Positions 20,748 to 38,108 of a DNA stretch of 64,000 nt are shown one piece after another; the first letter of the stretch is position 1, and every line of letters starts with the position of its first letter. The DNA lies in contig CAVUDW010000002.1 of NCBI GenBank assembly GCA_963740355.1, positions 2,336,001-2,400,000 on the forward strand, given 5' to 3'. This DNA is from an uncultured Gemmatimonadaceae bacterium. GTDB taxonomy: Bacteria; Gemmatimonadota; Gemmatimonadetes; Gemmatimonadales; Gemmatimonadaceae. The notes beneath the pieces are model-generated. The model was not told the origin of the DNA. It did not search any database and worked only from the letters and a program-made list of their open reading frames with translations. A program made the position numbers and the translations under genes.

Positions 20748-20821
20748 CGACGGGCGGCCGTGGCGCTGCGGCGTTGCGGCCCGGCTGACGGTTCGGGAGC
20801 GGAGCGACTATTTTCAGGAAG

Positions 20822-20895
20822 GCCCTCGTAGCTCAGGTGGATAGAGCAGCAGTTTCCTAAACTGTTGGCCGGCGGTTCGAGTCCGCCCGAGGGCA
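20822..20895 (+). tRNA. tRNA-Arg (anticodon CCT)
   Basis: Acceptor stem GCCCTCG/CGAGGGC+A, D-loop TAGCTCAGGTGGATAGAGC, anticodon arm GCAGT-TTCCTAA-ACTGT, T-loop GGTTCGAGTCC; CCA not encoded. Confidence 0.96.
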
Positions 20896-20901
20896 TTTGC
20901 T
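20850..20901 (+). repeat. attL: 52-bp direct repeat (3' part of tRNA-Arg plus 6 nt)
   Basis: cagtttcctaaactgttggccggcggttcgagtccgcccgagggcatttgct, identical to 36791-36842. Confidence 0.97.
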
Positions 20902-20972
20902 AAACTTCTGCAGAGCAATGACTTAGAGCAAGCGGCATTGCCGAGGTTGCTTCCGGGAGGGTTCCTGCCGGG

Positions 20973-21272
20973 TTACGCCAATCCCACCCGCACCGACCCA
21001 CCCGCAGCCGTCACGCGGAAGTAGGGCCAATCGACCCCGACCTTTGTGCGCGTATTGGCTGAGAAACTCTGATTCGCCGCGGTGTCCGTGGAGTCCGCCA
21101 CTGCGGCCGCGGAGTTCACTCGCGAGATCGTGGCCGTCGCGCCGGCGCTGGTGATGATGGTGATGGCGCCCACCCCGCGCAGATCGAGGACGATGCTCGT
21201 GCCGGCCGTGAGTGTGCGCGGTGAGTGTGCATAAGAGCGCTGTTCGATGGTGAAGTCTGCAGGGATCGTCAT
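20973..21272 (-). CDS. Small beta-strand-rich hypothetical protein (99 aa)
   Basis: ATGA-coupled to the terS stop; MTIPADF...VDWPYFRVTAAGGSVRVGLA. Confidence 0.65.
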   Translation of the reverse strand: MTIPADFTIEQRSYAHSPRTLTAGTSIVLDLRGVGAITIITSAGATATISRVNSAAAVADSTDTAANQSFSANTRTKVGVDWPYFRVTAAGGSVRVGLA

Positions 21273-21805
21273 GTGATGGGCTCCGGGTGGATGAGGGAGA
21301 GAACAGCATCGGGCACGCCGGAGACCACAGCATCGGGCACGCCGGAGACCACGGTGATGGGCTGACCGGCGCTGGTGACATCGAGGCTTGAGTGATTGCC
21401 GTACTTGCGTGGGGCGAGCGCCGCCACGTACCACCGTCTGGCATCGAATCGCAACCGAGAACGGGCGGCAAATTCGTGATTCGGACGCTCGACACCCTGG
21501 GCGTCCGTGAATCGGTCGCCGCTCGCGTCGTCAGCGATCGCCAACGCGTCTTCGGCGATGGCGTCGACCTGCATCTCTCGCACGCGCGCGTAGCGTTTCG
21601 CGTTCTCAGGGGATTGATCCCGCCACTCGTACACAGCCCGTGGGTTGACCGCCTCGGCCTTGCAGGCACGGCGCACCAGTTCTCCCAGCGCGACCCGCTC
21701 GAGGACGCGCTTCACGCGCGCGTCCGTGGTCTTGGCCAGCATTTTCGCCGGGGCCGAGATCGGGAGGTCAGCCACCATCGCCCGGGTGCTGCGTGCTGGC
21801 GTCAT
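21269..21805 (-). CDS. terS: Terminase small subunit-like protein (Sf6-type)
   Basis: HTH (LERVALGELVRRAC...AVYEW), Y.R.RE.Q.D..AE..L.IAD, RSRLRFDARRW...LAPRKYG; ATGA-coupled. Confidence 0.8.
   Translation of the reverse strand: MTPARSTRAMVADLPISAPAKMLAKTTDARVKRVLERVALGELVRRACKAEAVNPRAVYEWRDQSPENAKRYARVREMQVDAIAEDALAIADDASGDRFTDAQGVERPNHEFAARSRLRFDARRWYVAALAPRKYGNHSSLDVTSAGQPITVVSGVPDAVVSGVPDAVLSLIHPEPIT
21303..21352. repeat. 24-bp tandem duplication in the terS 3' end
   Basis: acagcatcgggcacgccggagacc x2, encoding VVSGVPDA twice. Confidence 0.9.
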
Positions 21806-22167
21806 TCTCGATCGCCCTCGTTCTCTCGCCGCATCCGAGCCACACGTTCGCGGCCCTTCAGCAAAATCTCCGTCAGCGTCTCTCCATTCGATGTGAGATC
21901 GATGGGTTGCGTCGGTTTGCCGTACCCGCGATCCGCGCAGAACGTGAGCGCTTTGACGAAGTGCGGATGATTGTGGTCCTTGAGGATCAGGCACAGCTCT
22001 CGGAGCGTCTCCTCGCTGCTGGCAAGTGATCGCATGTGCGCCACGAAGTCGTCGGTCGGGCGACCAGGTGAAACGCCGCGCCGCGGGTCCGGTCCCTTCG
22101 CGAACGGCTTCCCGCGCAATTTCTTCGGCGCGTTCGTGCCAGCGGTGATCGTGCTGGTGTCGAGCAT
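21802..22167 (-). CDS. DUF5681-like / second terminase-small-subunit-like protein (121 aa)
   Basis: N-terminal GKPFAKG.DPRR..PGRP and C-terminal DRGYGKPTQPIDLTSNGE, motifs seen in phage TerS-like proteins. Confidence 0.6.
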   Translation of the reverse strand: MLDTSTITAGTNAPKKLRGKPFAKGPDPRRGVSPGRPTDDFVAHMRSLASSEETLRELCLILKDHNHPHFVKALTFCADRGYGKPTQPIDLTSNGETLTEILLKGRERVARMRRENEGDRE

Positions 22168-22168
22168 G

Positions 22169-22453
22169 TCAGGCCTCATTCTCAAGGGAAAGGTCGGCGC
22201 GCAGCTGGGCGATCTCTGCGCGTCTGTCTTCGGCGTACTGCTCCGCAAACTCGATCTGTTGCCGCAGCTTCATCGTCCACATGACGCGCCCGAGGAAGAG
22301 GTCGCGCGTGGCGACCGGCGCCGCGCAGCGGTGGAGAGCGTTCCACCACGCGCGGAGTGCGCGGCGCTTCTGTGCCGTGTTCTCTTCGTGGACCGCGAGC
22401 TTGCGTTCGGCCCACGCGAGTTTGTCTGTGATCTCGAGGTGTGGTGTGGTCAT
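22169..22453 (-). CDS. Hypothetical helical protein (94 aa)
   Basis: Fills the gap between the giant gene and the terS-like genes on the same strand; AGAG upstream. Confidence 0.6.
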   Translation of the reverse strand: MTTPHLEITDKLAWAERKLAVHEENTAQKRRALRAWWNALHRCAAPVATRDLFLGRVMWTMKLRQQIEFAEQYAEDRRAEIAQLRADLSLENEA

Positions 22454-22464
22454 GTCTCTCAGCG

Positions 22465-25400
22465 TTAGCGGTGACGTGGTGGGCCAATCAGTGGCGCCAA
22501 GGGATTCGAGGTCGTGCCGTCGATCAGTGCCGTGATGCCCCGCACGGTGCGATCGAGCTGGGTGGCGGGATAGCCGAACAGCAGGCCCGCGGTTTCGTTT
22601 GCCGCACGGAGTGTTGCCGGCGTGACATCACCGCCGCGCGCGATACGGTCGGTCTGCGCTTTCAACTTCCCGATCGAGGCGAACACGCCGGCACCGGCCG
22701 GGCCATCGTAGTCGCCATACCCCTGCATCATCCCGCTCACTTCGCGCCCCAGCGGCACGAGGCTGAGGGCATACGCGGCAATCTCGGCGAGATACGAGGT
22801 CGCGACGTTGTCCGGTGGCTCATCACCACGCAGGGCATCCCGCAGCAGCTTGGTGAGCACTGACGGCAGCACGACGGTGAGCAGCACCACGTTCGTGATG
22901 GCGGCGACTTGTTCACCCCGTGTGCCGTCGCGCAGCGCCAGGCGACCAGACGAGGCGATCAGGTTGTATTGCGTGTTCATGTACGAGTACATCGCGGTCC
23001 AGAGTCGCGCCCAGCCTCGGAGACGCATGACCTGCGCCTGATCCTTGAGCATGCCGTTGCCCTGGCTATCGATCACGGCTTGATCGGCCACCAGCACGGC
23101 CTCGGCTTCTGGCGTGCCGGCGCTAATGGCCTTCTGATACGCGCCAATCCATGACGGCAGGTCGACCACGGTTTGCATCAGCGCGATGCCACGATACGCG
23201 TACTCGGCCAAGCCGCGGTCGAAGGCTTGCTTCGGCTCGATCTCGAAGGTCGCACGCAACGCCGTCATCGCGTCGCGCGACACCGTCGCTTGCCGTTCCC
23301 GCATGAACGCCGACTTCTCGAGGACCATGGCATTCGACTGATTCAGGCGCAGCAGGCTGCCGGTCGATGCCAGGAGACCGCGCGCCGTCCAGCCGTAGCC
23401 AATGCGCGCCGACGTCGAGAGGAAGCCAGTGGGCTGCATGAGCGCCGTCATCACGTTGAAGCCCATGCGCACCAGCGAGACTTTTCGGTTCAGCGTCTCC
23501 GCGATCGCATCCGTGGGGCCGGCAGGACGACCGTTGACCGTGACGTCCGTCAGCGCGCTTTTGATCTGCTCCCACAGTTCCGGTCCGACCGTGGCAATCG
23601 CGCGATCACCCACGTCCGGCGCGCGGAAGAGCACTGCGTTCAGGTCGCGAATGATCTCCTGATGCGTCAGGTCGTGGATCACCTCCCGCACATGCTCCCC
23701 GATCACCAACAGGTCGAGGCGCACCGCGTAGCTGGCCGACTGCACCCGCTCAATCCGACTGCCGTTCCGTGTGCTGCCGCGATGCGCGACGCCGCGCGCA
23801 AAATCCCGCTGCTGCGATTCCAGATCGATCGATTGAATCTGCGCGCTCTGCGTCGGATCGTACTTGAGCCGGTAGTACCCGCCGCGATACTGCGTCCCGC
23901 GCACGACGAACGGAATGGCCTCCACTTTCTCCGGCGCGATCCCATCGATGCGCTTGGCGAGGGCCTCGGTCGCGGGCCAGAACGAATCGAGATAGTCCCA
24001 GACGCCTTGCACCCAGCGCAGTTGGCTGTCCGTGAGGGACTCGCGGAGGCGCTGTTGCTCGCCGTCGCCAATCTGATTGCCATCCCGCAAGCGCTGCTGA
24101 TTCCCTTCGGTGCCCGTGTTGAGCACGACGGCCAAGCGCTGCCGGAGCGTGAGATGCACGACCACGCCAGTCGAGAGGCGCACGGGTGCCGTGGTGGCGA
24201 GCGCCTTGCGGTCCGCCGGCGTGAGCAATGCGTTCACACGCGCCAACGCAACAGCCGCTTCCCGGTTCTGTCGGGCTTCCTCGGTCCCCGCTTCATTGAG
24301 CGGGCGCAGCACATACTGCCACCAGTCGCCGGTCTCATTGCCGCCGCCAATCTGCCGGACGATAGAGGGCAGGGTGCGGAGCGTGGCGAAGCGTTCGCGG
24401 GCGGCCGTCGCGAATCGTGCACGCGACGACATGGCATCCCCACGATCGGGCGCGACCTGGCCGGTGCGATCGAGTTCGTCCATCAGCTTCGTGCGCAGTT
24501 CGTCCTGCGTGTGCTGCTTCGTCAGCGCGAGCGCCTTGCCTTCGCGCGCCGCACCGGTGCCGAGCATCAGCACCGCGTCGCGAAGATCCCGCGTCTGTTG
24601 CACCGTCAGGGACTGGAACGGGATCGCCGGCGTCTCGGTGCCGAGCCCCAACGCGGCGACGATCGGATCACCCTCGGCGGTCTTCTCCGTGATCCAGCGG
24701 GCCAGATCGGCGCGGGCCTCCCATTCGGTGCGCGTGCGCTGCTTCAGGTCGACGCGTTCGAGGAGGCCATCGATCTGCTCGAGCCACGGCTGCCCAATCT
24801 TGCCGATCTTCGCACGGACCGCCGGCTGCGTATACCGGAGCAACTCGCGGCGCGCGTCCCGCATTTCGTTCTGTGCGGCGATCGCTTCCGCATAGAAGAG
24901 ATGATTCAGGAGTTGCCGGCGCTTCGCCAGGTAGGCGCCCTGCTGGTTCCCGGCGACGAGTGCGGCTTCGACTTCGCGGGCGGCCTGTCGCTCGGCGACG
25001 AAGTAGCCATGTGGGCGAATCGTGGCGGCCGTCTGCTTGGCGATCGTGTCGCGGGCGAGTCGCTTGAGACTGGCGAAGGTGACGCCGTCCGCTCGGCTCG
25101 GCACATCCAGGCCACGCACATGGCCGAGCGCGGTGAGTTCTTCCACCAACACCCGCGCCAACCCGTCGTCTGCGGCATCGTGCGCGACAGAGCGAGCGGC
25201 CTGCGCCAGCGCGTTGCCATCGTGCAGGAGATCCCCGTAGTCGCGGGCCATGCTCGCACCCACCTGCTCCCGCACGAGGGCGTCGATCGGCGGCGCCGTC
25301 AGGAGCGCGGCGATCAGCTCGTCCTCCGTGGCAAAGCCGTACTCGATGGCGAAGAGCGTGGGGTCGATGCCGGTGTCGGTGGTCGTCAGCTTCCGTTGCG

Positions 25401-28400
25401 TCAACGTTTTGCGCGCCTCGGCGCCGAATTGCGCCTCGACCCAGGCGCGCGACAGCTTCTCGCCATCGCGCAGCGCAGCCTGTGCTTGATAGACCGGCTG
25501 GCCGAGCAGCTCCGCCCGCAGCGCGTCGGACCGTCGATCGAACTCCATCCGCCATTCGGCACGCGACGCCCGCAGCGTTTCGTTCCGCAGCTGCGCCTGC
25601 AGCTTCGCGGCGAAGGCTTCATATGCGACGGACGCCCGCTGCTGATAGGCCGCGAAGTCGTCCGCACTGCCGCCCACCTGCGCAGCATCCGTCAACTGAC
25701 CTGCGCGAACATCGGCCGCCGCAATCGCACTTTCGCCGGCCACCAAGCGATCGAACACGCCGCGGACTTCCTCACTGATCGGGATATTGAGGCCCGTCGC
25801 GCTGTGATACACGCTCACGATCCACGCACGGAAGCGACCGAACAGGGCCGCCAAGTCTGCCCGGGGCGCTGTGGCCGTCGCCCAATACGATTCGAAGGCG
25901 CGGGCGAACTGCTCGTGCTTGTCGCGCTGGTCTGGCCCAAGCGTCTCACCGGGCTGCAATCCCAGCCACTCGCGGATGGTCTGCGCGTCGGCCTTGAGTG
26001 CCTCGCTGGCGGTGTCCTTCGCCGCCGTCGTCAGCAGCATATCGACGAACAGGTGCGCCGACTCGTGGATGAACGTCGACGGGTTCTTGAGATTCAGGAG
26101 CCCGATTGTGACTTGGTAGCCATCGGGCGAAAACCGGATGTAGCCGTTCGGGTTCGCGTCGTCCTGATGGAACGTGGCGTGCTCGCCATCCACGGCCATG
26201 CCCATCTGAAAGAGCACGTTCCCGGCCGCATCAACCAGCTCGCCAGCGGCATTCAGCGAGGTCCCATCGTCCGCAACGTCCGGCAATGCGTCCGCCTCGA
26301 GGCCGGCGAGCGCGTCACCCTGATAGATGTCCTGGCTGGCGAGTCGATCGATCTCCGCTTGCACGGCCGCATCGGTGCGCACCCGGTCGGATTCGGCCGC
26401 CATGGCCTCACTGATCTGCGCTGGTGTCATCCCACGCGCTACGAGGGCCGCTTCGAGTCGGGCAATCCCTTTCTTCCGGGCCGCGACTCGCCCTTCCGCC
26501 CGCATCGAGCCTTCGGTGCCGACATACGACGAGCCACCGGCCGACAACTGCTGCTCGGAATCCACCGCACGGCCCACGATGTTCTCGGCGCCGTTCGCGC
26601 TGTACGCGGCCAGCAGCTCACGCACGAGCGCCGGTGTCTCCGTGCGAGCCAGCGAGGCATTCGAGCGGAGTGCCCCGGCCGGCGTGCGCGCGGAGGCGTA
26701 CACATCACCGCGGAGCATCGCCGCTGCCTGTCGGCCGCCAACGATCTGCACCACACGCTGCGAGGCGACGTCCGCCACCGACTGCGCGGAGCGATCGGCG
26801 AGTGACCGGTACACCAAGGCGTGCAGCTGCGCCAAGGGGGCAGCCTGATCCGCCTGGACACCCGCGGCCTGCAGTTGTGCCGACACGTTCTGCCGCACCG
26901 CCTCTTCACCCTCGGCCGGCTGTGGCAGTGCCGCCTGCATCTCCTCGAGGAGCCGAGACACTACCGCCGGATCCTGCAACTCGGCAGCCTTCGCCGCCGC
27001 TTCGCGTGCGCTCCAGTCATTGAGGTTTGTCTTCAGGTCTTGCGAGACCGCATCGTGGAACGGTGACGCGGCCAGCTTGGTCGCGTACACATCCATCGGG
27101 ATCGCGACGTAGCCGCCCAACTGCTGCGCCGTGAGGTATTGGCCGGCATCCCCGAGAATCGTTTGTGCCGCCTGTTCCGGTGCGACACCAGACGACTGGA
27201 AGAACGTCGCCCATGCTTCCGCAGGGACGTAGACGGTTGGTGCATCCGGCGCCGCCGCGCGCAGCAATTCCCCCACCGTGTCGGGCGCCTCGGTCAACGC
27301 TTTCGAGCGCCGCATCGTCTCGGACAGTGCGCTGAAATACTCAGCCGTTGCCGTGGCGCGTGCGGCGCGCACATGCTGGCCGGCGTAGTTCGCGAAAGCC
27401 GGTGGGAACCCGAGGACGAGCATCGCCTGGGCGGCCTGCGTGGCGGAGTCCAGCATATCCGCGCCGATGTCAGCAACGCTGTACGCCGATCCGTCAGGGT
27501 TCGCCACGTTGAGGGCGATGTTCGACAAGCCAGGCGCGATCGACTGCAGCGCTTCCGTGCTGGCCTCTTCTGCGATGGACGCCCCCATGCTCTTCGCAAA
27601 GCCGATGACGGCACCGCGTGCGGTGCGTTGTGTCACCGCACGCTCCACGGCCTGCGCTGCGGTGGTGCGGAGCATCGAGGGAATCAGCGACTGCGGCAGC
27701 AGGCTGCGCACGCCCGGCAGTGCATTCACGAGGAACACGTTGCCGACCGTCTCGAGCAACCCGTTCACGAGGCCGACGCCCCACGCCTGCGCACGCGCCG
27801 AGCGTTCGCTGATCGCATTGCCGGCCACCGTGGTGGAGCGCATCAGCCCATCCAGCGTCATCGCCCCTTCCGCCCGCATGGACGAGAGGAACCCGCCCGC
27901 CAGCGCGCCCGCCTGTGCGCCAGCTGCCGCACCGGCTGGCACGGTCACTTCTGCAAACGGGCCACCCGCCAAGCCCGCCGCCGCACCGAGTGTGCCGCCA
28001 ATCGCAGCCCCGGTGCCTGCGTCCAGAATACCGCGAATCATCGACGGGGCGGTGACGGTCGCATTGCGGACCACATTCGCACCGAATCGAGCCAGCGACG
28101 GCAACCCGGCGGTCGCTGCATCCACTGCGGCCGCCGTGGCGGTCGGATCCATCTGCTGCCGAGCCAAGGCATCCGACTGTGCATTGAGCAACGCGTTCTG
28201 TTCTGAGGTGGCACCCGACACCATCTGCTCGAAGCGCGCATCCACCACGTCAGTGTTCATCTTCCACGAGGCACCGAACGCCGTCACCGATCGCTGCAAC
28301 ATGCTTGGCGCGCGGATCGTCATCGGCGACTGCTTCAGCAACCACGACGCGGCGGCCATCGAGGGCAGATCATCCTGTACCTGCGCCGCCTTGATGGGAT

Positions 28401-28692: not shown

Positions 28693-30443
28693 CGAACCAC
28701 CTGCTCAAGGAGCGCGCGTGCGCTCGCTGCGGTGAGTGTGTCAGGAATTAGCCCGCGCGCGCGCAGTGCGGCGTACCGCTCGACCATCGCGTCCGTGATG
28801 CGCGGTGCGGCAATGCCAGCAACCGCCGCCAGTGCTGGGATCGTCTGTTCGCGGAACGCGGTCGCGAGCCCCGGAGCGATGCGCGCGAGCGGCACACGAA
28901 AATCACTTCGGTCGTCCGGTGCGACATCAGCCGGGAGCGCGATCGTGTTGCTCGTGCCCCAGTCATCGCGCGTCAGCACGCGCATTTTGAGCGGCTGCAT
29001 CACGAGCGTGTCGTATTCATCCGGCGTCAGGTCGCGCCCCAAGTGCTGCGCCACGGCGGCCCGGCGCGTGTCCGCTTCACGCGCGAACCGCACGTACGTG
29101 GCATTGGCCATGATCTTCTCGGCGGGGTCACTTGCCTTCGTGATGCCGAGCTCCCGGGCGGTCACCTTCGTGAGATCGTCGAAGCCAATCACCGCACCAC
29201 TCTTCACGCGCTGCGCTGTGGTGGCATTCGGTTGCGCACCGCGCCACATCCCGAGCCACCGCTCGCCATCGGGCACGCTCATACGCTGGATGTATGCGAG
29301 CGCCTGATCACGTGGGATGCGCTGAAGGTCGTCTTCCCGCATCGAGAACGCCTGGCCGGCGTAACGGGGGTCAGTCGCCGGCGGACGGCCGGACGCGGCA
29401 TGAATCAGGTTGTCCGCCAACCCACGCGAGATGGCGAACGCCTGGTCACTCTTCGAGAGACCATCCCATCCGACGGCGATTGCCTGCTGTACGATGGTCT
29501 CGCCGCGGTGCGCGCGCGCGCGGTCAATCTCCTGCTCGCGCTCTGCCTCTTCCCGCCCATAGATGCCCAGCGCATGCTCGCGCACCTTGCCCGACGTGTT
29601 CGCCCGGATGAAGTCGCGCGCGGCCCGACCATTCACGCCGTGCTGCGCGACCGCGGTATCTGCAACCGTTTGTGCCCTCATCAGATCCGTCTGCTGGCCC
29701 AGCGCCTGCTCAAGCTGCACCGCGTCGTCCGGCGCAATTGCGCCCCTCTTCGCGCGGAACAGCTGGTCGGCGGCCGTGACCTGATCCGATGCGAGGAGGC
29801 GCTGCACCGCGCCGGCGTAGAGCGAGGACACGGCCTTGTCTCGATTGGCGGCGACAACTTCCGGCGCATGCCCCTGCAGTGTGCCCAGCCGCTCCACGCC
29901 GACCATCACATCCGCCTCTGCCTTCCCGAGGGCCTGGACGTTGTTCGGATCCACCATGCCACGCGTGATGGCTGAGGTAATCGCGGTCTTTGCGACATCC
30001 AAGTCATAGACCGCACGTTCGCGCAACTCGTGACGCTGCAGCGAACCGTTCAGGGAATCGCGAAGCGCCGCCAAGCGCGGCTGCACCAACTGCCGTTGAT
30101 ACGCGGTCAAGTCTTTCGTTGACGCGCCGGCCTCGCGATCGAACACGGACAGGATGGCGTCACTCACACCGATGGCGTTCTTCCCCTGCTTGGCAAACGC
30201 GCCGCGTTCGGGATCGCTTAGCGCCTCCGTAATGAACGACGACAGGCGTGATTCAACCGCCGTAACCCGTGTCTCATCCGCCTTCCGCCGTTCCTGGACG
30301 ACGAGTGCTGCGAGATCGCCACCGGCCTGCTGCAGTGCCCCGCCTAACTGCCCGAAGGGATTCGGGTTTACGCTGTCGCGTTGCGGAGCGCTCAGTGGCC
30401 GAAGACCCGTCGAGATGGTGGGGACAACTGGGACATGAGGCAT
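28689..30443 (-). CDS. Putative internal virion / ejection protein (584 aa)
   Basis: MPHVPVVPT... N-terminus, L.DPE.G....GKNAIG motif, long helical body; lies directly upstream of the giant protein as in podophage ejection operons. Confidence 0.65.
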   Translation of the reverse strand: MPHVPVVPTISTGLRPLSAPQRDSVNPNPFGQLGGALQQAGGDLAALVVQERRKADETRVTAVESRLSSFITEALSDPERGAFAKQGKNAIGVSDAILSVFDREAGASTKDLTAYQRQLVQPRLAALRDSLNGSLQRHELRERAVYDLDVAKTAITSAITRGMVDPNNVQALGKAEADVMVGVERLGTLQGHAPEVVAANRDKAVSSLYAGAVQRLLASDQVTAADQLFRAKRGAIAPDDAVQLEQALGQQTDLMRAQTVADTAVAQHGVNGRAARDFIRANTSGKVREHALGIYGREEAEREQEIDRARAHRGETIVQQAIAVGWDGLSKSDQAFAISRGLADNLIHAASGRPPATDPRYAGQAFSMREDDLQRIPRDQALAYIQRMSVPDGERWLGMWRGAQPNATTAQRVKSGAVIGFDDLTKVTARELGITKASDPAEKIMANATYVRFAREADTRRAAVAQHLGRDLTPDEYDTLVMQPLKMRVLTRDDWGTSNTIALPADVAPDDRSDFRVPLARIAPGLATAFREQTIPALAAVAGIAAPRITDAMVERYAALRARGLIPDTLTAASARALLEQVVR

Positions 30444-31114
30444 CAGGCCGCCTTCTCGTGGCCGCGCATCTCACCGAGAATCCGGGCGAGTTCGGCGCTG
30501 CTCGCACGCAGTGGGGCGCCGAGGTCGAACGACGGGTTCACGATCGCTGGCCCGCCATACGTGTGGACGTGGACGCCTTCGCGCATCAACGCGACGCTCA
30601 CGAGCGTGACCATGTCCAGCGTCGGGAGCGCGGCCGCGGATCCGGGGTGCAGGGCGATCAGATGGTGCCGCGCTGTGTGTTGCGCGCGATCGACCGCCTT
30701 GTACGCGACGCCAAGCGCCACGATTGCCGCTTCGAGATCTGGCACGCCATCGCTGGAACGCGCGATCGCGTCGGCAGCGGCCGCGATCTGGGTGTCACGT
30801 TCGGCGCGGAGGACGCTCGCGTGCGCATCCTCGACGGCAAAGCGCGCACGCGACTGCCCCTGCGCCGCGGCATCCAGCGATGCCCGGGCGTTGGCGAGGG
30901 CCGTCGTCTCGATCTTGCTGTCCTCGGCATCGCCGGCAATCACAAGATCTTCCGCGCGACCGGCGCGATTCTCGGCATGTGAGACTTCATCCTGCGCGAG
31001 GCGGACACGTGCGTCGGCTCGTTCGGCCTGTGCCTGCGCATCGGTCAACGCCTGGCGGGCCTTGCTGAGGGCGCGGGTGGCAGTTGCAACGCCGTCGGTC
31101 GTGGTCTTGGTCAT
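30443..31114 (-). CDS. Ala-rich coiled-coil protein (223 aa)
   Basis: GGAG RBS, heptad-like helical N-terminal half, TGATG coupling to the next gene. Confidence 0.7.
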   Translation of the reverse strand: MTKTTTDGVATATRALSKARQALTDAQAQAERADARVRLAQDEVSHAENRAGRAEDLVIAGDAEDSKIETTALANARASLDAAAQGQSRARFAVEDAHASVLRAERDTQIAAAADAIARSSDGVPDLEAAIVALGVAYKAVDRAQHTARHHLIALHPGSAAALPTLDMVTLVSVALMREGVHVHTYGGPAIVNPSFDLGAPLRASSAELARILGEMRGHEKAA

Positions 31115-31200
31115 TAGAGGCTCCAGCTGGGGTAAGAGTCGCGGGCGGAATGCCAGCGGGGTGCAGCAGTTTTTGCGGCAGATTCGTGCGAACTGGGTGG

Positions 31201-31656
31201 TTAGGCAGCGGTCGAGAGGACGGCGACCGTTTCGATCACGGAAGCGCAATCGAGGACATCGAACAGGGCGAGAAGCTCGGCCTGCGGACGGAGAAGGCCT
31301 CCGTCGACCTCACGGACTCCGGCGCGTTCTTCGAACCGCTCGCGCTCGTCGATCGTGAGAAGACACAGCTGCAGGTGCGCAAAGCCGGCGGCGGTCCCGG
31401 CGATGGAGTGCACGTCGGTGGATGCCTGCTGGAACCGCGTCGCCCCGCATTCCATGTGGCGCGCGATCTCCCGGCGGACCTGTGGCTGGCGCAGGTAGAT
31501 GCGCAGCTCGTGCGTCAGGACGTCCGGGGGTTGGATGGCGATTCTCGGTGACCCGTCGGGCACGAGGGCCGCCACGCGCACCGTGGCGCGATGCAGGACC
31601 AGGTGCGCGAGCACACGACGGGCACACTCGAGCGTGCCGACAAGCTGGACGCTCAT
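31201..31656 (-). CDS. Hypothetical phage/satellite protein (151 aa)
   Basis: GAGGAGG RBS; ERFEERAGVREVDGGL..QAE motif seen in replication-module-associated phage proteins. Confidence 0.65.
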   Translation of the reverse strand: MSVQLVGTLECARRVLAHLVLHRATVRVAALVPDGSPRIAIQPPDVLTHELRIYLRQPQVRREIARHMECGATRFQQASTDVHSIAGTAAGFAHLQLCLLTIDERERFEERAGVREVDGGLLRPQAELLALFDVLDCASVIETVAVLSTAA

Positions 31657-31695
31657 TCGAATGCCTCCTCGAGCTGCAGCGTGGCAGCTGCTGGG

Positions 31696-31891
31696 CAGGA
31701 CGATAGGACAATCAGGACATGATTTAGAGCCCTCCGCATTACACGAACCAGCGAACCGCTCATGTACCGATACTTTGTGAATAATTGTCCTGATTGTCCT
31801 GTTGATTGGCTGCGCACTTGCTTTCGTGTTGTTGCATAAGCTTTTGCGGCGCAGGACAATCCGCAGGACAAAGACAGGCCGGCAAGACAAT
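31696..31891. other. Putative satellite replication origin (iterons)
   Basis: About 8 copies of a CAGGACAAT-like 9-mer in both orientations, including a perfect 15-bp inverted pair (31705-31719 / 31786-31800), in AT-richer non-coding DNA just downstream of the helicase. Confidence 0.7.
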
Positions 31892-33433
31892 TCATGTGAA
31901 ATGCTCGCTGCTGGTGCCCGACGCGTAGGGCTTCAGCTTCAATCCAGTCCGGTACTTCTGGCCGCCACGCTTTTCGCCGCCGATGCCGCGGTCCGTCAGT
32001 TTCCGGCCGAACACGTTGTTTGACACCGGCGTATCACCGCGATGCTCGCACCAGTGTTTGTAGGCCGTGTACAGGTTTCCGGCCAGCACTTGCGCTGCCG
32101 GGTCGCGGGTGCAGCGTTCGTCGATGAACTCAGCCATGACGTCGGATTCCTCGCGATAATTCTCCGTCGCGTCCTTCACGGCCTTCGGGAACGGCAACCC
32201 GGTCCGGTACCACTGGATCGCGCCAGACACCGCCCACGCGAGGACGCCGGGCAGTTCGGCCCGCAGCACTTCGTCCAGATTCTTCTCGTCTTCCTCGTCA
32301 GGGATCTGCACGTTGAACGGCACCAGCCGCATCCGGCGCCACAGGCCATCGCCCCCGCCGTGAACTACAGGCCGATGGTTCACCGCCATCCAGAGCGTGA
32401 GCTCCGGCGGAAACTCGATCTCCTTGCTGAACAAGTGCCGCGCCGTGATCGTGTCGCCGCCTGTGATCGCTTTCACGAGCGCTTCGTTCAGTCGCTTGCC
32501 TTCACCGGCTTCGGCTGTTGTCACGATGCGCGTGCGGTAGAACCGCGCGATGTCTCCGCGTGCGCCACCGACGGTGCCAGGTCGATCAAGAAAGGTTTCG
32601 AAGTCGGCGTGCACGGCATACTCGCCCCCCAGCCATCGCATCATCTTGATGAACAGGGACTTCCCGTTCCGGCCTGTACCGAGAAGCATGATCAGGCATT
32701 GCTCCAGCGTGTGACCCGTGAGGCTGTAGCCGGCCGCGATCCGCAAGAAGTCACGCACGTCATTGTCGGGTGCGACGCGGGCAAGAAAGGACATCCACCG
32801 GTCACACCGTGCCTGAGGTTCGTAAGGCACACTGACAAGCTTCGTGTAGTGATCGCCTCGGTCATGCTTCTTCAGCACGCCAGTACGCAGGTCAATCGTC
32901 CCGTTCAGAACATTGAGCACGTCGGGGTTTGAGTCCCAGTCTGCCGGGTTTCGTACGATCGCTGGATTGAAACGCGCAATCTTCAGTATCTGCTCAATCC
33001 CACCCGCCGACTCGCACTTGTCGGCCCACCTGAGCAGGGCTTGACGCTGGCCTTTGTCTTCAGCCGCCTCACCGGCGGTGCGAACTTCTCGAATCGTTGA
33101 TTGAGCGCGTTGCGAGGCCACAACCCCGCCATCGTCGAGTGCGAATCGGCGGCCGTCCCACACCCGCCACCCGCCAGAGGCGGCATCGTGTCGCACATCG
33201 TGCTTGTGATCATCAACAAAGCGATCCGCGTTGCCGAAGTTCGTAAGCGGGTACTGATGCCCTTCGCTAGCCAGCTCGTGTGAAAGTTTGTGACCTTCCG
33301 TGCAGCGATCCTCCCCCGTCTCTTCGGTGACGAACCCTGGGCAGCCGAGCGTAGGGCAGCACGCCGTATCGACGCCCTGCTCGAGCCGGAGCCGTGCGGC
33401 ACGGCTGTCTGGAAGGCGACGAGCAGCGGTCAT
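31892..33433 (-). CDS. P4-alpha/D5-family SF3 helicase (primase-helicase C-terminal type) with N-terminal Cys/His cluster
   Basis: D5_N (LTNFGNADRF, W.VWDG), LNV.NGTIDLRTG, Walker A GTGRNGKS, KAITGGDTITARHL, NHRP, WRR..LVPF. Confidence 0.9.
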   Translation of the reverse strand: MTAARRLPDSRAARLRLEQGVDTACCPTLGCPGFVTEETGEDRCTEGHKLSHELASEGHQYPLTNFGNADRFVDDHKHDVRHDAASGGWRVWDGRRFALDDGGVVASQRAQSTIREVRTAGEAAEDKGQRQALLRWADKCESAGGIEQILKIARFNPAIVRNPADWDSNPDVLNVLNGTIDLRTGVLKKHDRGDHYTKLVSVPYEPQARCDRWMSFLARVAPDNDVRDFLRIAAGYSLTGHTLEQCLIMLLGTGRNGKSLFIKMMRWLGGEYAVHADFETFLDRPGTVGGARGDIARFYRTRIVTTAEAGEGKRLNEALVKAITGGDTITARHLFSKEIEFPPELTLWMAVNHRPVVHGGGDGLWRRMRLVPFNVQIPDEEDEKNLDEVLRAELPGVLAWAVSGAIQWYRTGLPFPKAVKDATENYREESDVMAEFIDERCTRDPAAQVLAGNLYTAYKHWCEHRGDTPVSNNVFGRKLTDRGIGGEKRGGQKYRTGLKLKPYASGTSSEHFT

Positions 33434-33594
33434 CCGCGGCTCCGAACACGCAAGGCGGCGGAGGTGACAAGACGATCGATCTCGTCGATTTGCACGGGCG
33501 CGTCGTCCGCAAACGACCACTCGGTCAGGATGCGAACCACCGTCACCTTCGGGTTGCCCTTCGCCGGCTCTGCTGCCGGCTTCTCGGTGCTCAT
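33430..33594 (-). CDS. Small hypothetical protein (54 aa)
   Basis: MSTEKPAAEPAKGNPKVTVVRILTEW...; ATGA overlaps at both ends. Confidence 0.5.
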   Translation of the reverse strand: MSTEKPAAEPAKGNPKVTVVRILTEWSFADDAPVQIDEIDRLVTSAALRVRSRG

Positions 33595-33791
33595 GCGGAC
33601 CGCCGCGCTGGCTGTTCGTCGCGAAGAGCGGCGGCGTCCATGAACAGCTTGCCGAGTGCCCGGATTTCGTGCGCGGGCATCGGGTCAAGCCCGGACACGA
33701 TTGCCACGATTTCAGGGAAGAGCCAGCGATAGAAGGCCGTGCCGTTGCCTGGCACCCTTGCACGTCGCGGGCGGATATGTACACTTTTCAT
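33591..33791 (-). CDS. Small hypothetical protein (66 aa)
   Basis: MKSVHIRPRR...; stop overlaps the next start. Confidence 0.45.
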   Translation of the reverse strand: MKSVHIRPRRARVPGNGTAFYRWLFPEIVAIVSGLDPMPAHEIRALGKLFMDAAALRDEQPARRSA

Positions 33792-33859
33792 CTCAAGCCT
33801 CGACTTTCGAAACGCGTCCCGCCTGGCCGGCATATGGGGCGCGTTTCGCGTTGGTGGGG

Positions 33860-34129
33860 TCAGGCAGCGGTGAGTGCGACGTCGCGTGCGCTGGTACTGC
33901 GGAATCGCGGACGACTCGCGAGCCAGGCGTCGAGATCGGCAACGCGATAGCCGAGGGCCTTGGTGGAAATTTGTACGAACTCGGGGCCACTCCCTTCGCC
34001 GCGCATTCGCGCCAGCGTCGGGACCGACAGGCCGCAGTACTGCGCGGCGTGATTGGGGCGCAGCACTGGTACCGAGACCGAAGCCGGCATGGCTGTCGGC
34101 GCTCGCTTCTGCCGTTTGTCGTGAGTCAT
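33860..34129 (-). CDS. AlpA / excisionase-like winged HTH regulator
   Basis: LRPNHAAQYCGLSVPTLARMR..GSGPEFVQI..KALGYRVADLDAWL; GGAG RBS. Confidence 0.88.
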   Translation of the reverse strand: MTHDKRQKRAPTAMPASVSVPVLRPNHAAQYCGLSVPTLARMRGEGSGPEFVQISTKALGYRVADLDAWLASRPRFRSTSARDVALTAA

Positions 34130-34614
34130 CGCGTTCTCCGTGTATGCGGTGGCGGGAATGTCAGTGAGCGTCAGGTCGTGTCACTCGACTCAACACAAGC
34201 AGCAGCCCACTCCGCCGCCTATGGCAGGTGTAGTGCTAGTTCACTAGTCATCATCTGGGCTCTACTCGTATCACTGCACGTCGTGCGTTGACAGAAAGAA
34301 CGCCCCGCATTGGTGCCGGATGTAGCCGAAGTGAAGCCGCGCTACACTAGTCGAACAGCTTGTACTCCGTCTGCGCCCAGTGGTGTGACGGGTATGCAGA
34401 ACTCCCGAGCGAATGCAGGGCGCACTCGTCGGGAGTTCTCTCGTGCGTCATTCCGCGCCCGTATGGGCGCGGACTCACGACGTCAGCCGTCCGATCGCAC
34501 TCGGCGGCGTCGGTCTCACCATGCGCCAAGTGTTGCCACGGCGCTCGAGCACGACGATCGCGCGGCCGAGGATCCACGCGATGTAGCGCGTCGGGTGAGC
34601 GTGTGGGCCGCGGG

Positions 34615-34836
34615 TCATTCGGCACACTCCCGCAGGAGCTTCGGCGACGCCGGCACGAGCATGACGCGGAGCCCTTCAAGCGTTGGCGACAGCACCTCGC
34701 CGTCGATCACGCCGACCGTGTTGCCATTCAGGGCCGTGCGGATGACCTCCGCCTCGTACTCCTGCAGCTCCCACGGGTGCGCGGCGCGAATCGGCACCCA
34801 GCTGCAGTAGTTCATGACGATCATGCCGCGGCTCAT
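34615..34836 (-). CDS. Small hypothetical protein (73 aa)
   Basis: MSRGMIVMNYCSW...; ATGA-coupled to the upstream ORF. Confidence 0.45.
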   Translation of the reverse strand: MSRGMIVMNYCSWVPIRAAHPWELQEYEAEVIRTALNGNTVGVIDGEVLSPTLEGLRVMLVPASPKLLRECAE

Positions 34837-35234
34837 TGTGCTGTCTCCGGCAGGGCCGGCAACGCAGCTGCCGCAGCATTCAACGCAGCGACGAAGCGTC
34901 GAAAGCTCTCTGGCGTCAGCGACCCCAAGTAGCCGTCGTCTCCTCCGCAGATCGTGTAGTGACGCTGGGGGGTGGTGGCATTGTTGTCGCCGATCGTGAG
35001 TTTCACGTCCACCCACAGGCGCACGTCGGGTCCTGTGCCCTCGCCAGACTGTGCCGCGGTCAGCGTCCACAGCATGTACTCGTCCTTCGGCAGATCAGCG
35101 AAGGCCTCGACGGTGTGCGACGCGATCACGGTTTTCGGGGCGTCTGCGCTCGAGGGGACGAACGGCGCGCTGGCCGGCGACAGTGCCAGCGTCGGACGGG
35201 TGGCGCGCTGGGCCTTCAGGGGCGTATTCTTCAC
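34833..35234 (-). CDS. Hypothetical protein (133 aa)
   Basis: GAGAGG RBS, GTG start, immediately downstream of the integrase. Confidence 0.55.
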   Translation of the reverse strand: MKNTPLKAQRATRPTLALSPASAPFVPSSADAPKTVIASHTVEAFADLPKDEYMLWTLTAAQSGEGTGPDVRLWVDVKLTIGDNNATTPQRHYTICGGDDGYLGSLTPESFRRFVAALNAAAAALPALPETAQ

Positions 35235-35352
35235 GGTAAGCCTCTCCCCTCACGGGGAAGGTTCGCCGGTCCGTGTCCCCCTCTTCCGCCAAGTTGACGA
35301 GGGATGCGGGCCGGTCTTCGTTTCGGGAGTGCCGCTCCCGATCGGCGTGGGA

Positions 35353-36615
35353 TCAGCCCACGAGTTTGAGTGTCTCGGCGGGTCGTGCCAGGCGCTTCGC
35401 CCGATCCGCTCCCACCGTGTCTGCCGCGGCTTTCATGGGGTCGTCCACCGTGTGCACGTACAGGCTGCTGGTCGCGATGTTGGTGTGACCAAGCAGGGAC
35501 TTGACCGCCGCAGCGGGATAGCGCGCACCGATGTCTGACGCCATGTCGTGCCGGAAGCCGTGCAGCGTGAAGCCGGTGAGCTTCGCCGCATCCCGGATCT
35601 CGCGCCACTGTCGATCGATGTGCCGAACAGGCACGGTCGGATCATCGAAATGGGGCAGCACATACACGTCACTGTGCTTCTCGGCGCGGATCGTCTCGAG
35701 CACGGCGAGGGCCTCCGCGCTGATGTGGCGCTGATCTTCGGCCCGGTCGCTCAGCTTCATGCCTTTGCTGTCGAGGAAGGTCAATCGCTGGCGTTCCCGG
35801 TCGACTTCCACCCAGCGAAGATTGAGGATTTCCGACTTGCGACACCCGGTCAGGAACAGCAGGCGCAGCGCCGCCGGCACTTGCCAGGGCACGCCGTTCG
35901 CCTCGGCCGCGCGCATCGCATCCCCCAAGGCGGACACCTGTGCGTCGGTGAGCGGCACCACACGACGGCGAGGCTTCGGGTAGCGCTTCACGAACTGCGC
36001 GGCCGCAGGGTTCACCGTGATGTGCAACTGTCGGATGGCGAAGGCGAAGAACGCCGACATCGCAACGATCGCGTGGTTGGCCTCGCTCGGCGTCTCGTGG
36101 AGGTCCGTGTGCAGCGCCTGCATGTCGGCCGGCGTCACCAGCGTGATCGGCTCGGTGCCAAAGTTCGGAATCAGGTGGACCGTCAGCAGGCGGTCCACCT
36201 CCCGCACGTGCTGCGGGTCGCAATCCTTTCGTAGTTCCGCCAGGTACGTCGTAACGAGCTCGCTCACCGTTGGCACCGCCGCCCGCTTCTTCTTGTCGTC
36301 CTGCGGACGCTCGCCCTTGCTGAGCCGACCACGTGCCGACGTCGCCAGGGCTGCGGCCTCTGTGATGGTGATGTCACCATACGTGCCGAGCGTGAGCCGC
36401 CGGTATTTCGCCTTTCCGCTCGCGCCACGCGCCGCTGACTTGCCACCGATCGCATCGCGGAAGCGCAGCGCGAAGACTTTCACGCCGCTCGGGTACACGC
36501 GGACATGGAACCCCTTTGGCGCCTCGAAATACGCGTCATACGCCACCCCAGAGGGCTTCAGCGCATCAACGCTGGTCTTCCGGGCAGGGATTTTCGCCGG
36601 CGGTTTGCGAGGCAT
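35353..36615 (-). CDS. int: Tyrosine recombinase / integrase with N-terminal arm-binding domain
   Basis: GFHVRVYPSGVKVF...RRLTLG.YG (arm domain), LTGCRKSEILNLRW, LHGFRH, LLGHTNIATSSLYVH catalytic motifs. Confidence 0.96.
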   Translation of the reverse strand: MPRKPPAKIPARKTSVDALKPSGVAYDAYFEAPKGFHVRVYPSGVKVFALRFRDAIGGKSAARGASGKAKYRRLTLGTYGDITITEAAALATSARGRLSKGERPQDDKKKRAAVPTVSELVTTYLAELRKDCDPQHVREVDRLLTVHLIPNFGTEPITLVTPADMQALHTDLHETPSEANHAIVAMSAFFAFAIRQLHITVNPAAAQFVKRYPKPRRRVVPLTDAQVSALGDAMRAAEANGVPWQVPAALRLLFLTGCRKSEILNLRWVEVDRERQRLTFLDSKGMKLSDRAEDQRHISAEALAVLETIRAEKHSDVYVLPHFDDPTVPVRHIDRQWREIRDAAKLTGFTLHGFRHDMASDIGARYPAAAVKSLLGHTNIATSSLYVHTVDDPMKAAADTVGADRAKRLARPAETLKLVG

Positions 36616-36790
36616 GGTGCGCGGGTTCGCGTGAGGGTTCCAGCAGGGTTCCTCGGAACCCCACAACACGATAACGCCTGACAACACTTGATGTCAACAG
36701 CGAACGCGAACCCGCGAAGAATGCCTGTAGAATATGCGTGTTTTTGATATCATCAGATATCAGCACATGCCGTTGCAATGCCGTCGCCAA

Positions 36791-36842
36791 CAGTTTCCTA
36801 AACTGTTGGCCGGCGGTTCGAGTCCGCCCGAGGGCATTTGCT
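36791..36842 (+). repeat. attR: 52-bp direct repeat (tRNA-Arg 3' fragment)
   Basis: Identical to 20850-20901; lacks the tRNA 5' half. Confidence 0.97.
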
Positions 36843-36850
36843 CGCTTGCA

Positions 36851-38023
36851 TCAGACGAACGCACCGATCCCTGTGATCGCACGCCCGACGACCAGCGCCG
36901 TCATCTCGTTGGTCCCTTCGTACGAGTAGATCGCCTCGGCATCGCTGAACAGCCGTGCTGCGCCGTGTTCGAGCAACACCCCGTTGCCGCCCATCATCTC
37001 GCGCGCGAGTTGCACGGTTTCGCGGCAGTGGAACGCGCAGAACTGTTTCGCCAGCGACGTGTGCGCATCCGTGGCCAGGCCGGCATCCTGAAGACGAGCC
37101 GCCCGCAGTGCCATGCCGAGCATTGCAGTGACGTTGCCGAGCATGCGAACGAGCATCATCTGCACCAGCTGAAAGCCGGCGATCGGGCGTCCGAACTGCT
37201 GGCGTTCGCCGGCATATCGGAGGGCGTGCTCGTACGCGCCCATCGCACACCCGACGGCCTGAAACGCCACGCCGATCCGCGCCGCACTCAACACACGCGC
37301 CGTGTCTGCAAAGCTCGATGCCGCGGCAAGCCGGTCGGCCTCGTCCACGCGCAGGTCCGTCATGGTGATCCAGCCAGACGCGAGCGCTCGCTGTGAAATC
37401 TTGCCGGTCATCAACCGCGCAGTATAGCCGGGCAGGGACGTCCGGACGATGAAGCCCTTCACCCGGTCGTCGGCCTCGTCACGGGCCCAGATGATGACGA
37501 CGTCGGCGAACGTCGAGTTGCCGATCCACTTCTTCTCTCCGTTGAGGACCCACGTATCGCCTTCGCGTCGGCACCGCGTGGTCAGGCCGCGAGCGACGCC
37601 ACTCCCCACCTCTGGTTCGGTGAGGCCGAAGCACCCGATCTTCGAGAAGGTACGGAGTTGTGGCAGCCACTCCTCGCGTTGCGCGTCCGAGCCGAGCAGC
37701 AGGATCGATCCGAGGCAGAGTCCACCATGCACTCCGAAGTAGCTCGCCATCGACGGGTCGACACGCGCCAGTTCCATCGAATACAACCCATCGATTGTGG
37801 CGCGATTGCTTGCGGCGGATTCGAAATAGTGCGCGAGCGGATCGAGAGCGTGGAATCCTGCGAGCGCGCCATGATAAAACTCACCCCGATCCCAATGGTC
37901 GTCCGCGACCGGCGCGATATCGCGTTCGAGCACATGGCGCATCGCGAGGCGCCGACGGTTTTCATCGGGGGTGAGCGTGTCGAACCAGGCGTAGAGATCG
38001 ATCGGTAGCGTGGCGGGGGGCAT
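36851..38023 (-). CDS. Acyl-CoA dehydrogenase (glutaryl-CoA dehydrogenase / ACX4-like)
   Basis: FGLTEPEVGS, LNGEKKWIGN, RQQFGRPIAGFQLVQ, GGNG, YSYEGT. Confidence 0.92.
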   Translation of the reverse strand: MPPATLPIDLYAWFDTLTPDENRRRLAMRHVLERDIAPVADDHWDRGEFYHGALAGFHALDPLAHYFESAASNRATIDGLYSMELARVDPSMASYFGVHGGLCLGSILLLGSDAQREEWLPQLRTFSKIGCFGLTEPEVGSGVARGLTTRCRREGDTWVLNGEKKWIGNSTFADVVIIWARDEADDRVKGFIVRTSLPGYTARLMTGKISQRALASGWITMTDLRVDEADRLAAASSFADTARVLSAARIGVAFQAVGCAMGAYEHALRYAGERQQFGRPIAGFQLVQMMLVRMLGNVTAMLGMALRAARLQDAGLATDAHTSLAKQFCAFHCRETVQLAREMMGGNGVLLEHGAARLFSDAEAIYSYEGTNEMTALVVGRAITGIGAFV

Positions 38024-38062
38024 CGGAGGTCCGGGAGGAGTCGAACTAGTGGCGGCGAGCGT

Positions 38063-38108
38063 GACTACGATGGGACTACGATGGGACTACGATGGGACTA
38101 CGACGGGA
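38063..38108. repeat. 11-bp tandem repeat, about 4 copies
   Basis: gactacgatgg x3 plus gactacgacgg, overlapping the stop of the AMP-binding gene. Confidence 0.9.

Follow-up and report, generated by a model that had tools for sequence, protein, structure and literature searches.

A probable phage satellite carrying predicted ejection-protein genes of its own at a tRNA-Arg gene of an uncultured Gemmatimonadaceae bacterium

In the present study, a 64,000-nt stretch of DNA from an uncultured Gemmatimonadaceae bacterium (assembly GCA_963740355.1, contig CAVUDW010000002.1, positions 2,336,001 to 2,400,000; hereafter the window, meaning the whole stretch) was analysed, and we found that it holds a 16-kb element integrated at a tRNA gene. 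About half of this element encodes homologues of the internal virion (ejection) proteins of BPP-1-like short-tailed phages. We believe that the element is probably an intact or recently active integrative satellite, and that it belongs to a recurrent family parasitising such phages. The satellite life style taken by itself seems likely to us, and to the specific role, in which the element would load its own short ejection proteins into the particle that delivers its DNA, we give roughly even chances. Such an element would depend on a helper, be packaged in helper capsids and incorporate its own ejection proteins. Its size is near one third of that of the 40-48-kb phages with homologous genes, and this size is conserved in the family.

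Insertion site, gene order and predicted ejection proteins

A repeat search over positions 19000-39000 returned a single long direct repeat, the attachment (att) pair, which is 55 nt long with one mismatch at the third base (20847-20901 on the tRNA side and 36788-36842 on the integrase side). The perfect 52-nt core begins at 20850 and at 36791, and the start-to-start spacing of 15,941 bp agrees with the unit and the perfect 52-bp repeats described in the initial annotation of this DNA. The sole tRNA gene of the window found by ARAGORN, tRNA-Arg(CCT) at 20822-20895 on the plus strand, is the integration target; therefore, the left repeat is the 3' part of this gene. A repeat placed in this way is the classic footprint of a tyrosine integrase. 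The two genes flanking the element are 16.1 kb apart in its own genome. Among 19 genomes of the same genus, they lie on one contig only 0.2-4.0 kb apart in 11, as would be seen at the empty site that the initial annotation had proposed to look for; they are 8.6 kb apart in one more, and in the other seven they are split over contigs or one of them is missing. Each of five same-genus sites examined has one tRNA-Arg(CCT) gene, and the att core (up to 8 mismatches) occurs there once in three sites and not at all in two, a second copy being absent from all five. The element is therefore an insertion without counterpart in these relatives.

Other DNA also occurs at the same site. In two of the same-genus genomes, 8.6 kb (L095, G002:C90:6000-16400) and 4.0 kb (L096, G005:C165:27900-33700) of different sequence lie between the same flanking genes beside tRNA-Arg(CCT), with no second core and no homologue of the element's genes, and the contigs of five further genomes break exactly at these flanking genes. 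The tRNA-Arg(CCT) site looks like an insertion hotspot.

All long open reading frames (ORFs) between the repeats are on the minus strand, and their G+C content at third codon positions (GC3; 0.72-0.82) backs the called frames and argues against overlapping alternatives. In the direction of transcription the order is integrase, small ORFs, AlpA-like regulator, helicase, iterons, 151-aa ORF, coiled-coil protein, 584-aa protein, 2075-aa protein, 94-aa ORF, 121-148-aa ORF, small terminase subunit (TerS) and 99-aa beta protein. The single strand and the gene order given earlier were borne out by ORF calls, family matches and GC3, with the addition of the 151-aa ORF at 31201-31656, which the earlier list had missed. 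Furthermore, the earlier statement that capsid, portal, large terminase subunit (TerL) and tail genes are lacking held in Pfam and PHROG scans of 15 element ORFs, where none of these families was matched. The ORFs without assignment span 94-223 aa and are therefore too short for a capsid, portal, TerL or tail protein.

The giant 2075-aa protein (22465-28692, minus strand) is a homologue of BPP-1 Bbp10. Its residues 832-2062, a conserved C-terminal region of ~1,230 residues, match phrog_9880 (E 1.2e-258), and by tblastn it matched 47 phage records of 39.5-48.4 kb. The identity to bbp10 of Bordetella phage BPP-1 is 30% (E 5e-97), and homologues were also found in Caulobacter, Pseudomonas, Xanthomonas, Vibrio and cyanobacterial podophages. 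At residues 876-880 there is an HExxH motif, of which H876, E877 and H880 are invariant in a 26-sequence alignment. Many homologues bear 'polyvalent protein' domains, for example PF18834 and PF18760. When contigs of viruses, genomes and metagenomes were scanned with the single protein and with three sequences, no close relative came up, the sole match being an ordinary phage contig (L004). The closest homologue of the giant (P0002, 54% identity) is on a contig of 17,205 bp.

The gene of the 584-aa protein (28689-30443, minus strand) precedes that of the giant, and its product is homologous to the N-terminal part of BPP-1 Bbp11. Residues 30-333 match phrog_10475 (E 1.2e-27), phrog_1044 is matched as well (E 1.7e-23), and the N-terminal 300 positions of both families are covered. 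Homologues occur in 14 phage records, and the protein matches the 'structural lysozyme' genes that adjoin the giant gene in phages such as Pseudomonas phage HU1; no Pfam match and no lytic domain was detected in it. The two genes occupy 7,980 bp, that is ~8 of 16 kb. The earlier proposal that the two large proteins resemble virion core proteins is thus upheld by their homology to Bbp10 and Bbp11. Elsewhere in the same genome, outside the window (C2:1141917-1144112), a weak match (E 1.1e-10) to the Bbp11 profile built here was noticed, which may reflect the transglycosylase part of that profile alone.

Podophages pack internal virion proteins into the capsid and eject them to form the channel by which the DNA crosses the cell envelope. 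In phage genomes, the homologues are arranged as Bbp12-Bbp11-Bbp10, with tail-tubular B on one side and the tail fibre on the other. The annotated order in BPP-1 is tail bbp14 and bbp13, internal virion bbp12, bbp11, bbp10 and tail fibre bbp9, and a metagenomic phage contig repeats it with a Bbp11 homologue of 581 aa. In the element, the giant gene stands outside such a structural cassette, with the coiled-coil gene, the origin and the helicase gene upstream. For the syntenic gp33-35 of the Xanthomonas phage PhiXacm4-11, of which gp35 has 2,300 residues, a preprint names a T7 gp14-16-like core as the candidate function (bioRxiv 10.64898/2026.02.16.706137). In sequence searches of the PDB, neither of the two large proteins was matched, nor was the profile built from 26 giant sequences, and no connection with the solved A4 pre-ejectosome (PMC12002296) emerged. 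The prediction that both are ejection proteins is thus supported by family membership and conserved position rather than by a solved structure.

Relatives in genomes and viromes

A profile of the giant protein was run against contigs of one genome per species and gave 258 relatives, the best 80 of which were analysed. Profiles of tail-tubular A, tail-tubular B, BPP-1-type capsid, Bbp12 and Bbp11 were built from the loci and scanned against all 12,272 ORFs of loci L004-L084. Tail-tubular B was in phage position in 41 of the 58 loci that have at least 9 kb upstream of the match, and absent from 17. Scans with PHROG and Pfam covered twelve of these 17, in one set of seven loci (125 ORFs) and another of five (82 ORFs), and marker searches followed. 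Two of the 17 proved to be phages of other layout (L018, L082), two have a giant gene so long that the tail genes lie beyond the flank (L027, L076), and five are without clear satellite markers (L023, L041, L046, L064, L075). In the other eight (L020, L037, L042, L043, L053, L054, L058, L059), integrase and/or replication genes replace the head and tail genes. As a side observation, L023 and L041, both from Acetobacteraceae metagenome-assembled genomes (MAGs), combine a giant gene with a Bbp12-like gene and a Bbp11-like gene that bears a transglycosylase, whereas their upstream flanks contain no tail-tubular genes; a DNA invertase is near in L023. These two may be satellites, remnants or phages of another layout.

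Six of the eight satellite-like loci are bounded by tRNA-3' repeats spaced 14.7-17.4 kb apart. Wider flanks were taken for five, and four of these gave repeats of 47-48 nt with one copy forming the 3' part of a tRNA gene, in a Paraburkholderia isolate (L020; tRNA-Arg(TCT), spacing 15,810 bp), a Rhodoferax MAG (tRNA-Lys(CTT), 15,503 bp), a Vicinamibacterales MAG (tRNA-Thr(CGT), 15,951 bp) and a Methylotenera MAG (tRNA-Lys(CTT), 16,712 bp). Shorter cores at the 3' end of tRNA-Ser bound L058 (17 nt, spacing 14,736 bp) and the element of a Woeseia MAG (14 nt, 17,443 bp, with the integrase at the far end). No repeat was present in the stretch of L053 examined, and L059 is truncated where its contig ends. 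Nearly the full length of each delimited element is taken up by genes on the strand of the giant gene. The layout runs from the integrase through an AlpA- or Xis-like gene, replication genes and virion-related genes to the giant gene, which is last, near the far att site. The replication modules vary, being an SF3 helicase in the window and AAA_25 helicases or an O-like initiator with a DnaC-like loader in others, and no capsid, portal, TerL or tail-tubular gene was matched in any satellite-like element. The element of the window is not a one-off remnant, as its architecture, size and tRNA-att structure recur in six genomes of other lineages. Carriers of the family include at least Beta- and Gammaproteobacteria, an Acidobacteriota MAG and the lineage of the present genome.

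In IMG/VR, the same profile gave more than 506 relatives. Among the best 80 that were analysed, 79 were ordinary phage fragments or uninformative and one was satellite-like (L132). IMG/VR assigns the whole record (L181; 16,498 bp) to the class with direct terminal repeats, and its CheckV completeness is 38%. Its ends share 141 bp inside the giant gene, and the closed circle measures 16,357 bp, with a giant ORF of 1,864 aa running intact across the junction. Also encoded on the circle are an integrase, an AlpA-like protein, a Bbp11 homologue and replication proteins of O-like and DnaC-like type. L181 closes at 16,357 bp, so such elements exist as circles or concatemers of the size of the integrated copies. 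Overall, the satellite reading offered by the initial annotation is strengthened by the recurrence in six other genomes, by this 16.4-kb circle and by the empty site in the same genus.

In addition, several relatives carry genes related to capsid assembly. Bbp16, which we take to be the BPP-1 cement protein, has homologues in the Paraburkholderia, Rhodoferax and Methylotenera elements (Pfam, E 6e-19 to 2e-27). A Bbp18-like protein of ~170-270 aa, which aligns with BPP-1 bbp18, is present in eight loci, namely those of Paraburkholderia, Rhodoferax, Methylotenera and Vicinamibacterales, L053, L054, L059 and L017, the last being a fragment too short to classify. BPP-1 bbp18 is annotated as 'protease' and appears scaffold-like by its position. 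The phage order is Bbp18-like protein, capsid protein, Bbp16 (for example in L030 and L063), and the satellites retain the Bbp18-like gene and/or Bbp16, never the capsid gene between them. In an alignment that included L086:4179-4844, L087:15786-16454, L092:7535-8152, L090:7472-7984 and others, the satellite Bbp18-like proteins lack ~25 C-terminal residues and have an added internal insertion in comparison with the phage versions. This loss and insertion may be a determinant of capsid size. The Methylotenera element also has a TerS gene (phrog_4044, E 1e-37) and the Rhodoferax element a DUF5681 protein gene. A separate observation concerns the Paraburkholderia element, in which a 695-aa tail-fibre/tailspike-like gene occupies the Bbp11-like slot (L086:1645-3732 = L020:6287-8569); the N-terminal adaptor of its product matches phrog_1640 and phrog_13893, and there is a weak pectate-lyase-like match. 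This satellite may bring its own receptor-binding protein.

The giant protein is 1,862-2,075 aa long in nine satellite-like elements and 1,883-3,413 aa long (median 2,297) in 95 phage loci. A FastTree phylogeny of the conserved C-terminal region was made from 132 rows, 11 of 143 giants being dropped for incomplete coverage and L059 being cut. In this tree, the nine satellite giants scatter over at least five places among the phage copies; one starred clade holds four of them (L053, Rhodoferax, the circle and L058), and the copy of the window is on a long branch. The scatter would fit repeated exchange of the giant gene with phages or helpers.

Comparison with known systems and rival explanations

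Satellite families described so far hijack their helpers at the level of capsid size, packaging specificity or tails. Phage-inducible chromosomal islands (PICIs) are described in the SatelliteFinder paper by five cores (integrase, regulator, primase-replicase, capsid-morphogenesis gene and TerS) and as typically free of further phage-like structural genes (PMC10085698). Our element has four of these five, the integrase, regulator, primase/replicase and TerS; a capsid-morphogenesis gene was not matched with Pfam, PHROG and NCBIfam (the profiles of SatelliteFinder itself were not used). As it has four of the five cores but also structural genes, it is classed as a phage satellite and not as a PICI. 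It resembles the PICIs of that description in its end-placed integrase, AlpA-type regulator, primase/replicase-type gene followed by an origin, TerS and unidirectional genes, and in a size of ~15-16 kb, or about a third of that of a 40-48-kb helper, with no tail or lysis genes (PMC10085698). It differs in that ~8 of its 16 kb are internal-virion genes, in its inferred BPP-1-like podophage helpers and in a host outside the usual PICI taxa.

With the capsid-forming PICIs (cf-PICIs), the family shares the principle that the satellite supplies part of the virion and borrows the rest. However, cf-PICIs have a capsid, portal, protease and connectors of their own and borrow the tails, whereas this family contributes internal proteins (in the relatives also scaffold and cement) and has to obtain capsid, portal, TerL and tail from elsewhere. 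No major capsid, portal or head-tail connector was found among the 15 ORFs. With the P4-like satellites, the element shares the C-terminal domain of the P4-family helicase (TIGR01613), an AlpA-like regulator and an integrase. P4 pairs an assembly protein with a capsid-surface protein, Sid with Psu, and the relatives show a similar pairing. The helicase of our element is without the primase domain, and nothing in P4 corresponds to its helper type or its ejection module. Sid, Psu, Delta and Epsilon did not turn up in the Pfam and PHROG scans, in which no search by name was made. In comparison with the podophage core proteins (BPP-1 Bbp12/Bbp11/Bbp10, PhiXacm4-11 gp33-35 and T7 gp14/15/16), the order small-medium-giant is kept, but the genes lie apart from tail, portal and capsid genes, inside an integrative replicon. 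Moreover, no transglycosylase domain could be detected in the medium protein, the small one is not detectably Bbp12-like, and the giant is without the extra enzymatic domains of many phage homologues. A full-text literature search found no description of a satellite encoding ejection or internal virion proteins.

In the mechanism that we propose, a helper podophage, not resident in the genome, would infect the cell, and the island would excise and then replicate from its iteron origin. The island TerS would steer the helper TerL to the island DNA, which would be packaged in helper-built capsids, the helper giving capsid, portal, TerL and tail. In the relatives, the capsid would probably be shrunk by the satellite scaffold variant and stabilised by the satellite cement protein; SaPI (Staphylococcus aureus pathogenicity island) and P4 achieve small capsids by other means. 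The particles would carry the short ('minimal') ejection proteins of the satellite, and these would deliver the 16-kb genome to the next cell. We see the odds as evenly balanced for the broadest form of this proposal, a widespread and undescribed family of podophage satellites of ~15-17 kb, tRNA-integrated, that would hijack the virion interior, with a capsid remodelled by a truncated scaffold variant and a cement protein and with a minimal ejectosome (in one member also a tail fibre) replacing that of the helper, the satellite deciding delivery and recipient and giant-gene swaps keeping it compatible with helpers. If an own ejectosome is loaded in borrowed particles, ejection proteins would be exchangeable between virions, the family would offer a natural system to ask how the internal core matches capsid size, and satellite diversity would reach podophage helpers and poorly studied phyla. 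A cultured Paraburkholderia isolate (locus L020) carries an element, so the satellite idea is directly testable.

In the genome, which is 94.5% complete in 5 contigs, the giant gene occurs once. In line with the proposal, profile searches of the six-frame ORFs of this genome found no BPP-1-type tail-tubular, capsid or Bbp12 genes, and Pfam Terminase_6N, TerL_ATPase and Phage_capsid gave no match, so there is no resident helper; a co-resident BPP-1-like prophage, which the initial annotation had suggested looking for, was thus not encountered. Several points weigh against the proposal. For this host there is no known helper, and homologues of the giant were seen in none of 60 relatives in a first look that was stricter than usual, and in only 2 of 401 genomes of a sample of the phylum, one of them this genome and the other a contig fragment of 1.5 kb. 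Among sequencing runs searched with 20400-21400, none holds the locus, the best word share being 0.10. Neither a scaffold nor a cement homologue could be detected in this copy, and its third 'ejection' gene is without assignment. The ejection function of Bbp10/Bbp11-type proteins would itself follow from synteny with T7 gp14-16 and the candidate assignment of one preprint. Finally, the length difference between satellite and phage giants has a Mann-Whitney p of 4e-6 that is overstated, since kin are not independent, and forcing the satellites into a single clade is 1,610 log-likelihood units worse (approximately unbiased test, p-AU 2e-38) in a subset of 43 rows which, like the satellite group, was chosen after the first tree, so that this test is indicative only.

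The main rival to the delivery role sees in the element a satellite or defence island whose short Bbp10/Bbp11 variants would sabotage phage particles or block the DNA entry of related phages, with transfer secondary. Satellites such as SaPI, PLE (phage-inducible chromosomal island-like element) and P4 commonly interfere with their helpers, the satellite giants are shorter than the phage proteins and no resident helper was found. However, the module always occurs with integrase, replication and TerS-like or DUF5681 genes in a total of 14.7-17.4 kb, an apparent packaging constraint, and a circular form exists; we therefore hold sabotage to be unlikely as the primary role, and the two roles are compatible. 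Less probable still is a decayed, immobile BPP-1-like prophage from which deletions and rearrangements removed the genes for head, tail, lysis and TerL. It is true that every phage-like gene has phage homologues, that a 45-kb viral contig has the order TerS-TerL-beta protein, from which the TerS-beta order of the window could arise by deletion of TerL, and that this copy is without scaffold or cement gene. Against this, the att repeats agree perfectly along 52 nt, the integrase keeps its motifs, every frame is open and has coding GC3, and TerS lies downstream of the ejection genes, an order unseen in the phage loci examined (the TerS position in BPP-1-like phages was not among what was examined). 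Furthermore, the same reduced architecture and size occur in six other genomes and as a circle, and replication modules differ between copies while the layout is constant. The initial annotation had named a one-off deletion remnant of a full-length prophage among the refuting cases, and the relatives at this site are not full prophages. A phage-independent integrative element, mobilised for example by conjugation, with the giant as a co-transferred 'polyvalent' anti-defence protein, is in our view very improbable. Polyvalent proteins are described in phages and conjugative elements alike, and giant homologues do bear such domains (PF18834, PF18760 and others), but no relaxase, coupling protein or other conjugation family was matched in any scanned ORF, the TerS, scaffold-like and cement genes point to capsids, and all giant homologues with readable context are in podophage structural modules or in these elements.

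Integration, replication and small genes of the element

The tyrosine integrase (35353-36687, minus strand, likely start 36615) has an arm-binding domain (PF00589 E 2.1e-16, PF13356 E 4.5e-12, phrog_1 E 4.9e-48), and its TGCR, HGFRH, GHT and LYVH motifs are intact. Small accessory ORFs follow at 34347-35234 on the minus strand, among which a 133-aa ORF (34833-35234, GC3 0.79) gave in Pfam a weak DUF6907 match and nothing else, the others being uncertain. The AlpA/excisionase-like helix-turn-helix regulator (33860-34129, minus strand) matches phrog_66 (E 5.6e-9), and its score with Pfam HTH_17 is 25.6 bits, under the cut-off of 27. The replicative helicase is of the P4-type D5_N/SF3 group (31892-33433, minus strand; PF08706 E 1.3e-27, phrog_1156 E 3.3e-117, TIGR01613 E 2.6e-82). 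Its matches are to D5_N, DUF5906 and Pox_D5, that is the helicase part only, with no primase domain. The frame is open to 33784, and the 117 codons upstream of the likely start have non-coding GC3 (0.62). The nearest homologues are 55-58% identical, many of ~730 aa with Toprim domains, and they are not on contigs of 17,205 bp, the length of that with P0002.

Directly past the helicase stop, at 31700-31892, there is a cluster of iterons, TTGTCCTG and its variants, in both orientations with an A+T-rich spacer. Five exact copies of TTGTCCTG occur in the window, four of them within 31785-31871, where 1.44 per window are expected by chance and none of 100 shuffles reached 5. The cluster is a putative replication origin, as had been suggested earlier for iterons beside the helicase. 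It is followed by the 151-aa ORF (31201-31656, minus strand), which has a GGAGG ribosome-binding site ahead of it, a GC3 of 0.82 and no Pfam, PHROG or NCBIfam match; tried as a scaffold, it did not match the Bbp18-like profile.

The 223-aa coiled-coil protein (30443-31114, minus strand) has the position of Bbp12 or of the scaffold-like protein of the relatives. A single-sequence AlphaFold2 (AF2) model predicts a long helical hairpin for residues 2-120, with a predicted local distance difference test score (pLDDT) of 80-94. This shape is reported for T7 gp14 and PhiXacm4-11 gp33 in the preprint cited above (bioRxiv 10.64898/2026.02.16.706137) and is also a common arrangement. Comparison with a 16-sequence Bbp12 profile gave an hhalign probability of 0.4%, with no PHROG match (phrog_418), and comparison as a Bbp18-like scaffold gave 0.2%; both candidates were rejected. 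A fold search returned generic coiled coils only.

After the giant gene come a 94-aa ORF (22169-22453, minus strand, GC3 0.81) and a 121-148-aa ORF (21802-22248, minus strand, GC3 0.75), both without Pfam, PHROG or NCBIfam match. TerS, of the Sf6 type, is at 21269-21778 on the minus strand, its ORF being open to 21994 (PF20901 E 2.2e-25, phrog_1482 E 5.7e-25), and by tblastn it matched TerS genes of 103 phage records. Of the two TerS-like genes claimed in the initial annotation, this one was confirmed, and the 121-148-aa ORF was not, as it matches no family and does not resemble the DUF5681 protein that the Rhodoferax element encodes.

The last gene encodes a 99-aa beta-sandwich protein (20973-21272, minus strand), which overlaps the TerS stop by ATGA and has 81 homologues of ~100 aa. 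Its AF2 model (pLDDT 91.4) is an eight-stranded beta sandwich. A fold search with VIA-align found nothing specific, the best Z of 7.5 being at background level. As a Bbp16-like cement it was rejected, with no Pfam or PHROG family and with Foldseek matches to the PDB and BFVD of E 2e-3 or weaker. Two of 78 family members gave family matches, weaker than E 0.008. In a 45,008-bp IMG/VR contig (L185:3634-8856), a homologue lies past TerS, between TerL and portal, and the TerS-then-beta-protein order of the window looks like this module minus TerL.

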